Shown here piece by piece: positions 6,587 through 53,285 of a DNA stretch of 64,000 nt (the stretch's first letter is position 1; each line of letters opens with the position of its first letter). The stretch is from Octopus sinensis (Eukaryota), in NCBI RefSeq assembly GCF_006345805.1, contig NC_043013.1, positions 39,990,001 to 40,054,000 on the forward strand, read 5' to 3'. The notes under the pieces were generated by a model. The model was given only the letters and a program-made list of their open reading frames with translations. It had not been told where the DNA came from and searched no databases. The position numbers were made by a program, and so were the translations under genes.

Positions 6587-6736
6587 ATAATAATAATAAA
6601 CATATTGCGTAAGGTACTGTCTGTCTGGGGTCCTTTTTGTGACTTGACGAACAGTACAAACCCCGGTAGACACAATATCTTCAGTCAGCAACCTCACGAT
6701 ACTGTATACTATGCGACGTCTATAATAATAATAATA

Positions 6737-7097
6737 ATCCTTTCTACTATAGGCACAAGGCCTGAAAGTTTGGGGGAGGGTCTAGTCGATTACATCCCAA
6801 AAGGATGAAAGGCAAAGTCGACCTCGGCGAAATTTGAACACAGAACATAGCGGCAGACGAAATACCTATTTCTTTACTACCCACAAAGGGCTAAACACAG
6901 AAGGGACAAACAAGGACAGACAAACGGATTAAGTCGATTACATCGATCCCAGTACGTAACTGGTAGTTATTTAATCGACCCCGAAAGGCTGAAAAGCAAA
7001 GTCGACCTCGGCGGAATTTGAACTCAGAACGTAACGGCAGACAAAATACGGCTACGCATTTCGCCCGGCGTGCTAACGATTCTGCCAGCTCGCCGCC
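6737..7097 (-). mobile_element. SINE family A tandem/nested pair (Tx1-tail unit joined to a headless ATT-tail unit)
   Basis: Two A-family units; junction AATACC|TATTTCTTTACTACCCAC at 6866/6867. Confidence 0.85.
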
Positions 7098-22507: not shown

Positions 22508-22696
22508 AATCCTTTGTACTGTAGGTACAAGGCCTGAAATTTGAGGAAGGGGACTAGTCGATTAATTAACTAGTACTTATTTTATTCACATCGAAAGGAT
22601 AAAGGTAAAGTCGACCTCTGAGGATTTGAACTCAGAACGTAGCGGCAGACGAAATACCGCTAAGCATTTCGCCCAGCGTGCTAACGTTCCTGCCAT
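22508..22696 (-). mobile_element. SINE family A (ATT-tail)
   Basis: Match to family A; lies between (TAA)n runs. Confidence 0.8.
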
Positions 22697-48620: not shown

Positions 48621-49476
48621 CCTGTGACAATTCGTTCTTTTCATTTTTATTTTTATTTTTTTTGCTTCGACATAGTGTATCAACGACTACGTTATCCGTG
48701 TAGTTCATCTTTTTAAGATGGTGGAGTTTGAGTTAAGGGAAATTTAACTGCTGTTTCTAGCACACCACGTCCACTTAAAATTCTCTCACATTGTCTCTTT
48801 GTATTTCTGTTGTTTAATCTCCGGTTGTCTGGATACAGCAGGATCATGATCAAAAATATTCCAACTCTGATCATTGCTACCTTTCTTTTATCTTTTTCAG
48901 GCAGTGTATCGAGAACCATTTCATTTTAGGTGGGTAAATTTTTAAAAACTGGTTGGATGTGATTGGGGTGGGAAAATAATCAAACACTTCTTCACCGATA
49001 ACAAAACTCGAACGGAAAATCTCAACATTGATTTATTTCGACAACCAACCCTCCTGCAGTGTTGAGATACAGCAAACATAATGTGTTGTTGTTGTTGTTG
49101 TTTTGTTTTTTGTTTTTTCTCAGGGGATCAATATGAAATTTCATTCCAATTTTTCTAAGCAAAGATCATCCCAGAAACACTTAGCAAAAAATTCTTAATT
49201 GCCGTCAAAAGACTCTCTGTAACATGAAAAATACAGAGTGATGAACGGACGGACAGAGTACACTAAAAGAAAGAGTCCCACCACGTATCGTAGGTGGTAA
49301 TGAACGACTTTAAAACCAAATTGAACCCCATCACCCAAACGAACCCACACACAAATACACAGACACATACATGCACACACAACCACACACTCTCACATAC
49401 ACACACACACAGCAAAACAAAATGCATCAGAATAGATCAAGTAATCGAAATAAAGCAATACAACCAATGTTTAATT

Positions 49477-49855
49477 TATTTCTTTATTGCCCACAGGGGG
49501 CTAAACATAGAGGGGACAAACAAGGACAGACAAAAGGTTTCAGTCGATTACATCGACACCAGTGCGTAACTGGTACTTATTTAATCTACCTCGAAAGGAT
49601 GAATGGCAAAGTCAACCTCGGCGGAATTTGAACTCAGAAGGTAACGCTAGACGAAAAACCTATTTCTTTACTACCCACAAGGGGCTAAACACAGAGAGGA
49701 CAAACAAGGACAGACAAACAGATTAAGTCGATTATATGGACCAAGTGCGTAACTGGTACTTAATTTATCGACCCCGAAAGGATGAAAGGTAAAGTCGACC
49801 TCGGCGGAATTTGAACTCAGAACGGCGTGTTAACAATTCTGCCAGCTCGCCGCCC
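49477..49855 (-). mobile_element. SINE family A tandem/nested pair (both units Tx1-tail) with 18-bp TSD
   Basis: TACAACCAATG(T/A)TTAATT at 49459-49476 and 49856-49873; internal junction at 49660/49661. Confidence 0.9.
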
Positions 49856-49962
49856 TACAACCAATGATTAATTAAAGTGGATGGTGTATGTTAGCGTTAA
49901 CATAGGTATGAGAAAATTTGTGAAGAAATTCTTACCCTGCAGATCCCCAAAATAGTCTAGAC

Positions 49963-50866: not shown

Positions 50867-52334
50867 AACACACAAATATATATATAAATTCACACACATA
50901 TACAGACATACAAGCATACAGACATATACATATGCATGGATACATACAGACATATATACACGCATCTATACATACGTACTCTCTCTCTCCCTCTCTCTCT
51001 CTCTCACTCTCTCTCTCTCTCTTCATCTATCTATCTATATGTGTATTCTCCTAATTCTGGGCATGCATGCACGCGCGCAAGTATGCGCTTGCCTCTAATG
51101 CCAAAGCAAACTGTCACAAAAACAGGTTGAATGTCCAGTCAGTCACGCCAAACCACCAGCGCCCAAACAGCCGCGCAGAACAGTCTCATTCCGCTGTGCT
51201 CTTATTCTAAACTCATTCGCCATCTTAAATATATCTATGTCTACGCGCAATTTGGCTAGATAATCATTGACCGACAAAGGATTCCTCTGTCCTTTTGATA
51301 GGTACAGCGTTTTTATTTTATCCTTCTCTAAGAGGGATTTTAGCAATAATCCTCTTTGCCAAGCTGGCTTGGTGGGGATGACAGTTTAGGCGCAGAGAAC
51401 CTCGGCATGTAACAGGTTGTACTAGATAACATATTAGACTGCGGCGTTTACAAACACTTCACCTACATGCGTAAATGAATATGTATATACATGCATGCGT
51501 ACATACATGACTGAGTCAGTTGCTAATGTATAAATCCATGCGTGTAACAACATAAACACTCTCCAAAACACATATATTATACAAAAGAGAAAAAGTTAGT
51601 TTGTTTATGCGCGTGAATGTGTGTTCTGTATGAACGTGTGCGCGTGCTGTGTGAGCTGTATGTGTGTGTGTGTGTGTTTATGTGAGTGTGTGCGTGTGTG
51701 TGCAAATGTACCCGTGTATGTGTGTGTGGGCGCGTGTATGTGCGTGTGCAAGTATGCCCGTATGTGTGTGCTGTATGTATGTGTGTGTGTGTTTATGTGA
51801 GTGTGTGCGTGTCTGTGTGTGTGCAAATGTGCCCGTGTATGTGTGTGTGCAAGTGTGCCAGTATGTGTGTGTGTGTGCAAGTGTGCCAGTATGTGTGTGT
51901 GTGTGTGTGGTGTGTGTGTGTGTGTGTGTGCGTTTTCTGTGTATTTAAATGCCTTTGCAAATATACATGCCTGTGTGAGAGAAGGTGGAAACACACAGAC
52001 ATACACACACCCTCACTCTCACTCTCTCACACACGCACACACATTCTCTCCCCTTTCTTTCTCTCTTTCTCTCTCCTTCTTTCTCTCTTTTATCTGCATC
52101 AGCTGTTGTTTGCAATAAATCGCCATGTTTGACAGGGGGTAATTTCATAATAAATCACTTTGTATCAACAACACTGCCTTCTTCCGACCACTCCACCACC
52201 ACCACCCTTTCTCCCCGCCCCCCACTATCTCCTGTTAACGCTATAATAACTCACACACTTTCTCCTTAACGCCATCCTATCTCCCCCTCCAACTCCGCCA
52301 TTGTCTATGTCAACCAGCATTTCAGTTTTCCTTA

Positions 52335-52998
52335 AGGCGGTAAGCTGGCAGAGTCGTTAGCGCGCGGGGCAATGAAACTAAGTGGTATTTCGTCCGTCCT
52401 TATGTTTTGAGTTCAAATTCCGACGAAGCCGACTTAACCTTTCATTCATAAGTACTAATCGAGCACTGGTATCGATCTAATCGACTATCCCGCTTCAACA
52501 GAATTTCAGGCCTTGTGCCTTTACAAGAAAGGATTACTAGAAGGCGGCGAGCTGGCAGAAACATTAGCACACCGGGCGAAATGCTTGAGCTGGCAGAAAC
52601 GTTAGCACGCCGGACGAAATGCGTAGCCGTATTTCGTCTGCCGTTACGTTCTGAGTTCAAATTCCACGCTTGTCGACTTTGCCTTTCATCCTTTCGGGGT
52701 CGATAAATTAAGTACCAGTTACGCACTGGGGTCGATATAGTCGACTTAATCCGTGTGTCTGTCCTTGTTTTTCCTCTCTGTGTTTAGCCCCTTGTGGGTA
52801 GTAAAGAAATAGGTATTTTGCCTGCCACTAGTTCAAATTCCGCCGAGGTCGACTTTGCCTTTCATCCTTTCGGGATCGATTAAATAAGTACCAATTACGC
52901 ACTGGGGTCGATATAATCGACTTAATCCGTTTGTCTGTCTTTGTTTGTCCTCTCTGTGTGTAGCCCCTTGTGGGCAGTAAAGAAATAAGAAAGGATTA
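52335..52998 (+). mobile_element. Triple-nested SINE family A cluster
   Basis: ATT-tail copy 52335-52536; Tx1-tail copy 52541-52987 with TSD AAGAAAGGATTA (52525-52536 / 52987-52998); third copy 52587-52811 inside its head. Confidence 0.9.
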
Positions 52999-53285
52999 TC
53001 ATCATTATTTGATGAAAACTCTCAGCTTATTTTGTTAGGTTTAATGGAAAGTGTCAGCTGCTCACAGCCATCAGATTAAGGGTGACATTTGTTTACTGAT
53101 CATGCTTCAAGAACCTTGCAGAAGGCTATTGCAGTTACAAGCAATGATGATTTTTTTGGGGGGTGTTCTATCTTTACATTTGTACCAATCTATTTGAGTC
53201 ATATCGGTAGTTGAGTGCTGATACTTACAAGCGCGCCTATTCCCTGTTGGTGTCACGTCCACTCTCTTCATTGCCCACAACCTGT

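Follow-up and report, generated by a model that had tools for sequence, protein, structure and literature searches.

A Tx1-tailed SINE of Octopus sinensis that very probably inserts at a fixed base of its own family

Several LINEs of the Tx1 clade are known for fixed targets: Tx1 inserts into Tx1D, Keno into U2, Kibi and Koshi into microsatellites (PMC4494074), Mutsu targets 5S and Dewa targets tRNA spacers (PMC3706591). For the crocodilian SINEU-3, the published account states that 90% of the copies flank the target and that tandems arise by sequential insertion; it also contains the criterion of Kojima, by which a non-LTR element is target-specific if more than 20% of its flanks are of one kind (PMC4494074). 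A link between SINEs and tandem arrays has been called poorly evidenced in a study on reptiles (PMC10702118). For octopus, the available text of the repeat papers reports L1-Tx1 elements and abundant SINEs, without a self-targeting pattern (PMC13282606, PMC8967140, PMC4758252).

Here we analyze a window of 64,000 nucleotides of O. sinensis DNA, located at G000:C17:39990001-40054000, which contains three arrays of a SINE with a Tx1-type tail. Octopus tRNA-derived SINEs named OK, OR1 and OR2 were reportedly described by Ohshima and Okada in 1994 and are likely the same as or related to the self-targeting family.

Arrays in the window and the genome-wide junction

Junctions had been noted at 52811/52812 (plus strand, GGTATTTTG), 49661/49660 (minus strand, GGTTTTTCG) and 6867/6866 (minus strand, GGTATTTCG), and all three were found at these positions. 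The double head claimed at 52541-52586 and 52587 is real and was read directly in the sequence, and the uninterrupted heads near 22650 (minus strand) and 24680 (plus strand) read as had been claimed. Also in agreement with the original prediction, the right partner at 6737 bears an ATT-type tail and those at 49477 and 52987 bear a Tx1-type tail. The following features were distinguished:

52334 to 52539, plus strand: older member of the SINE family, ATT-tailed, with no interruption at the target base
52526 to 52536, plus strand: 11-bp TSD (AGAAAGGATTA) flanking the outer host SINE, 5' copy, within the tail of the older ATT-tailed copy
52541 to 52586, plus strand: host SINE head (A box), ending 3 nt short of the target base
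52587 to 52811, plus strand: inserted SINE, about 7 nt missing at its 5' end, G44/C49 head, Tx1-type tail variant GGGTAGT
52812 to 52987, plus strand: host remainder with target base (GGTATTTTG), B box and Tx1-type tail variant GGGCAGT
52988 to 52998, plus strand: 3' copy of the outer 11-bp TSD
49661 to 49854, minus strand: second array, left unit, head with internal deletion, GGGTAGT tail
49477 to 49660, minus strand: second array, right unit starting at the target base, GGGCAAT tail
49856 to 49873, minus strand: second array, 5' copy of an 18-bp TSD
49459 to 49476, minus strand: second array, 3' copy of the 18-bp TSD (one difference)
6867 to 7097, minus strand: third array, left unit, full head (G44/C49), GGGTAGT tail
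6727 to 6866, minus strand: third array, right unit starting at the target base, ATT-type tail
22620 to 22696, minus strand: uninterrupted head (T44/G49) of an ATT-tailed copy, 12-bp hairpin fold with the target base beside a 4-nt loop
24638 to 24720, plus strand: uninterrupted head of a Tx1-type copy

The dimer at 49660 had been called seamless, which has to be corrected for its head, where about 37 nt are deleted internally. At the 52541 locus there is no internal TSD and the join is flush over the shared letters AGC. In all three arrays the left unit carries the tail variant GGGTAGT, and both Tx1-tailed right units carry GGGCA(A/G)T. With its short non-coding body, its TSDs and its high copy number (83,386 exact tails), the element qualifies as a SINE. 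Its head contains the motifs TGGCAGAA.CG and GTTCAAATTCC, which fit the consensus of the A and B boxes in type 2 promoters of Pol III. ARAGORN found no tRNA in the window, and an Rfam search of locus L261, which contains the SINE head, gave no tRNA match.

In the 2.72-Gb genome the exact junction, GTAGTAAAGAAATA joined to GGTATTTCG, was present in 27,043 copies, compared to 0 for the reversed control, and the 14-letter exact tail alone in 83,386 copies (control 163). The share of exact tails that stop at the target base is 27,043/83,386 (32%), mutation not being allowed for, and the junction position is peaked and not dispersed, as had been expected. In 264 kb of unselected DNA, made up of the window and 199.5 kb of C1, the target site is joined by 14/22 T-type tails and by 0/6 C-type tails; T- and C-tails mark subfamilies with linked body positions. 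Many junctions are spaced by about 184 bp, an array consisting of one head and then of units that each begin at the target base. More than 99% of the junctions are seamless (104 double-head matches versus 27,043 raw matches).

Double heads and the origin of the arrays

The double-head pattern, in which a head runs through the target site and is followed by a second head, had 104 matches genome-wide, and 63 of these loci were examined, namely 23 of the first 30 (7 were dropped as members of the same tandem) and 40 more. A tail was present in 59/63, and the first tail rejoins the target site in 49/59; the 49 rejoining tails comprise 47 of the T-type, none of the C-type and 2 that were unreadable. 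Non-majority letters at +10 to +13 of the 3' copy were found at 27 loci, and at 14/27 the same letters were present in the 5' copy, whereas shuffling leads one to expect 0.86 cases of such shared host-private TSD letters (p = 5e-5). Because these TSDs repeat host-private variants at both ends, the double-headed loci are independent target-primed insertions.

A different origin would be from a few dimeric or multimeric master RNAs, in which the junction arose rarely and was then amplified. The seamless state of more than 99% of junctions would agree with this, transcript read-through is possible, and composites do move as units, since 10/59 double heads end in other DNA, not at the target site, and look like composites moved as units. 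However, the right partners over 107 ordinary junctions are of at least four kinds (41 T-tail, 17 C-tail, 38 ATT-type and 11 other), and rare variants of the left and right units across 62 dimers are unlinked (Mantel rho 0.000, p = 0.50), which argues against a single dimeric master, as the original prediction had done. With the same rho of 0.000, co-inheritance of the monomers from one master, as in an Alu-like dimeric SINE, was not observed. The TSDs with host-private letters and the LINE found at this base (see below), whose partners vary just as much, also speak against masters, and we regard this origin as improbable. A test of age gave no significant result, which master RNAs would fit as well: the insert was younger than its ATT host in 9/13 cases (p = 0.34) once diagnostic columns were removed, and the initial 35/38, inflated by measuring against the insert's own consensus, was left out.

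Three or more rare variants are shared by 9/107 neighbouring units (at L009, L030, L215, L219 and others) versus 0.3% of random pairs, and local duplication also adds to arrays. These cases, together with 65-bp head repeats and with the SINE-derived satellites known in reptiles (PMC10702118), would be in agreement with arrays that formed as satellites by unequal crossover or DNA slippage. However, 63/107 neighbouring units have no rare variant in common, and the fixed register at thousands of loci, the TSDs and the LINE at the site would all be left unexplained. Such duplication is insufficient as an origin, for which we consider it highly improbable, and remains a secondary process next to independent insertion.

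Some loci show smaller rearrangements. A tandem of head plus TSD (65-76 bp), repeated up to about 10 times (L125-L131, L148-L150, G000:C3430:1366-2212), is a minisatellite born from a double-headed locus. Short 5' head duplications that end near nt 27 inside the outer TSD (L189, L191, L192, L202) are likely template jumps between SINE RNAs. In four public runs, swamped by paralogues, no empty-site allele was seen for 52100-53280.

The target site and a LINE at the same base

The target site is next to the loop, 4 nt in length, of a hairpin of 12-13 bp (z about -3.0, two copies). Heads occur as T44/G49 (n = 65) or G44/C49 (n = 46), both forms pair across the loop, and the G44/C49 form changes GGTATT to CGTATT. 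A C49 host was found in 1/49 confirmed insertions versus 46/117 heads (p = 1e-7), a gap that is inflated both by the richness of the 117-head sample in Tx1-tailed copies and by the youth of the variant. G44/C49 keeps the RNA hairpin, alters the target and is almost never hit, and it is likely an escape allele; selection for it cannot be proven from a single double change in a single master. The heads of seamless dimers are T44 in 24/33 cases and those of T-tail monomers G44 in 22/30 (p = 4e-4), which fits host heads on inserted bodies. The same tail-to-head joint was also seen under three other organism labels, in 26, 1 and 18 contigs. When runs X10, X11 and X12 were compared with window positions 52586-52987 by summed contig depths, a weak measure, the X11 label differed from X10 and X12 in having much less of the Tx1-type tail in proportion to the body, and its heads were nearly all T44. 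The expansion of the T-tails may thus be specific to a lineage, as may the G44/C49 form.

A LINE at the same base of the SINE head had been predicted, and it exists as a 5.3-kb L1/Tx1-type family. The stem-loop tail of the SINE, CCCC..GTGGG.A.TAAAGAAAT, also terminates LINEs that contain a zf-RVT domain. A pattern joining the codons of the ORF2 end to this tail retrieved 3 copies, all at the target site, and a DNA search with one of them gave 41 matches, from which 30 loci were fetched. The LINE joins the SINE head at the same base in 27/30 loci (26 by script, L241 by eye), or in 24/27 after merging four duplicated copies; among the other three loci, one has a deleted junction, one lies in unique DNA at GGTATACG with an 11-bp TSD and one joins GGTATTGCG and LINE-like sequence. 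Both the LINE (27/30) and the SINE tail (32% exact) thus have more than 20% of their flanks of one kind. At three junctions the host C is kept, that is, the LINE inserted at G44/C49 heads 3 times.

In the 5.3-kb copy (L261 with L247) the host head lies upstream and the host variant CGTATTTCG is present at both ends. ORF2 of this copy contains an N-terminal APE endonuclease (PF03372, E = 1.9e-6) and a reverse transcriptase (PF00078, E = 1.3e-13), and the best solved-structure match of the targeting LINE is LINE-1 ORF2p (E = 2.9e-15). Its C-terminal zinc finger region aligns with zf-RVT elements, and a zinc knuckle CX2CX4HX4C was read by eye in ORF1 of the sister copies L258 and L260; Pfam gave no score on an ORF1 piece of the targeting LINE. 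A quick tree, built from 44 of 75 protein pieces with SH-aLRT support only, places the targeting LINE in its own clade among the stem-loop-tailed LINEs. The label Tx1 is given to it provisionally, on the basis of its anatomy; protein searches brought up no named Tx1 reference. The host head is absent within 1.5 kb upstream for most truncated copies, and a clean head-LINE join was found in 1 of 6 extended copies (the 5.3-kb copy) and in L241, most others being broken up. As the tail of the targeting LINE is mostly GGGCAAT and not the closest to the SINE tail, other LINE families matching other parts better, the LINE-SINE partnership rests on the shared site. The SINE likely borrows the cutting enzyme of this LINE.

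Other LINE families also have fixed neighbours. A second family (L154-L183, for example G000:C1:34145268-34148563) is joined at a single position to the head of another SINE, which bears a CCTTGGG CORE-like motif; this was the case in 27/27 family loci (30 were fetched, 3 being other elements), and the two SINE-head-targeting families are not sisters in the quick tree. At a single locus, L111:2228-2391, a LINE of yet another family lies with its 3' end directly against base 1 of a complete U1 snRNA gene (Rfam RF00003, E = 4.7e-32), and one zf-RVT family (L112-L117, L119) has a fixed 3' flank. Many zf-RVT matches lie 3.5-6.4 kb apart (for example G000:C3:72501693-72529006 and C9:76607599-76623724), a spacing that suggests tandem LINE arrays.

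Sequence-specific insertion between the A and B boxes, as originally proposed, holds in so far as the SINE peaks at about nt 49, but the motif is short and is used outside SINEs too, a second site exists and the subfamilies are split between sites. In unique DNA, the next letters after T-tails were GGT in 24 and AGA in 3 cases, and after C-tails GGT in 3 and AGA in 27 (p = 9e-10), as counted by hand in 100 rows per tail type, whose head-site shares were too low and were not used. TATA often follows both tail types outside SINEs. The target specificity is therefore relaxed, to a short GGTA-type motif that is also used in unique DNA. TSDs were obtained for 64/119 terminal units and are mostly 11-20 bp long; their 5' copy contains the motif, and upstream of it no clear motif was seen. 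C-tails account for only 2,293 junctions at the main site. The second junction lies in the A box (AGAAWCGTT) and has 3,957 copies, with C-tails in 84 of the first 100 listed (hand count). From 22 matches to A-box double heads, 6 were dropped as one tandem and 16 were examined: a clean TSD was found only at L186 and a partial one at L188, the remaining ones being head duplications or target deletions, and the A-box site was rejected as one of generally true insertions. The sister subfamily with the GGGCAAT tail prefers AGA/TATA sites, including the A box, probably via another LINE; no LINE with an AGA or TATA preference was found. As separate observations, T-tailed SINEs with TSDs lie antisense in a SINE body at a GGTAC site within a duplicated block (L226-L229, G000:C27), and extra GAAATA-like letters between tail and target (L137, L205 and several T-tail rows) resemble slippage at the start of reverse transcription.

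The dependence of target class on subfamily, GGT for T-tails and AGA for C-tails, would also be expected if the RNA sets the site. A SINE or LINE at the site would be transcribed into GGUAUUUCG, the read-through 3' extension would pair with the nicked DNA and prime, and the target choice would be inherited with the flank. This would replace the recognition step only and is compatible with independent insertion. The motif that a subfamily prefers is also how its own head site begins. T-runs in the majority unit do not exceed three, so that Pol III read-through would be expected, and such pairing has been described for SART1Bm and R1Bm in the account given in PMC7265360. TSD copies differ more at positions 1-3 (17/180) than at 4-12 (17/528), but the mismatches at positions 1-3 bring some copies closer to the preferred motif and take others further from it, and the way in which TSDs were anchored biases the count. 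Moreover, the motif is also present in the 5' TSD copy and is thus part of the target DNA, targets differ between LINE families that each have proteins of their own, and the host C is kept at the three LINE junctions mentioned above. RNA pairing as the determinant of the site is in our judgement unlikely, and recognition by the enzyme is our preferred reading. A search for overwriting of the target by RNA gave a weak, mixed signal with one case (L265), and such overwriting was rejected as an explanation.

Proposed mechanism and comparison with known systems

Target-primed reverse transcription (TPRT) is the established route for such elements. We consider it very probable that the Tx1-tailed, tRNA-type SINE inserts by TPRT at a fixed base (about nt 49) of its own family, with a LINE endonuclease. 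The observations behind this proposal are the genome-wide peak, the host-private TSDs, the varied hosts, the LINE at the same base and the shared tail. The LINE enzyme would nick before GGTA(TT), and reverse transcription would be primed on the SINE tail. From a second nick, placed 11-20 nt downstream, an overhang would result that matches the SINE's own cDNA, and on annealing of both the spare head would be lost and a seamless 184-bp unit formed. Double heads would make up less than 1% of the junctions because this annealing would remove the spare head, while the LINE, which has no such match to the overhang, keeps its TSD. At 52541 the join is flush instead, over the shared AGC. As no upstream motif would be needed, every junction could again become a target and arrays could grow. 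Homologous 5' joining in the seamless dimers, which the original prediction had also proposed, is what we infer from these features; in the seamless junctions (more than 99% of all) the joining step itself was not seen.

Such insertion would lead directly from dispersed SINE copies to arrays in tandem, and in this SINE-rich genome the loci concerned number tens of thousands. The LINE would use the most abundant SINE as a safe haven, and the same SINE would ride the machinery of the LINE. Annotators will mistake such arrays for dimeric SINE families or for satellites. Natural pairs, namely two subfamilies, two sites, and a hit and an unhit allele, make enzyme versus RNA pairing in the target choice of non-LTR elements testable. 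In a wider and speculative view, to which we give little credence as a whole, SINE heads would be a contested niche on which separate LINE families specialise, a SINE that acquired the tail of such a LINE would target itself, subfamilies would inherit targets via read-through RNA and not via an enzyme, and the dominant master would have escaped self-insertion by a compensatory two-base change that preserves its RNA hairpin.

The nearest parallel to the octopus SINE is crocodilian SINEU-3 with its Tx1-Mar LINEs, where a Tx1-tailed SINE shares the target of its LINE partner (PMC4494074). The target of SINEU-3 is the DNA transposon Mariner-N4 and the TSD is kept between tandems (PMC4494074), whereas here the target is the own family's head and the join is seamless; the octopus SINE therefore carries its own target. 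The Tx1 clade likewise has LINEs with an APE endonuclease that form TSDs and are tied to a multicopy target (PMC4494074, PMC3706591). The targets given in those accounts include no SINE head, whereas here two LINE families each target one. Squamate SINE-derived satellites and multimeric Dip/B1 SINEs share with the octopus loci tandem arrays of part-SINEs with a period of 150-190 bp, but they are ascribed, in the account available, to recombination or full-length tandems (PMC10702118), whereas here the units start at the insertion site and the arrays are short and dispersed. A literature search, with Repbase, subscription journals and supplements outside its scope, gave no description of SINE self-targeting. 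Targeting of the Tx1 type is already known, and within the literature searched a SINE's own head as the target is new.
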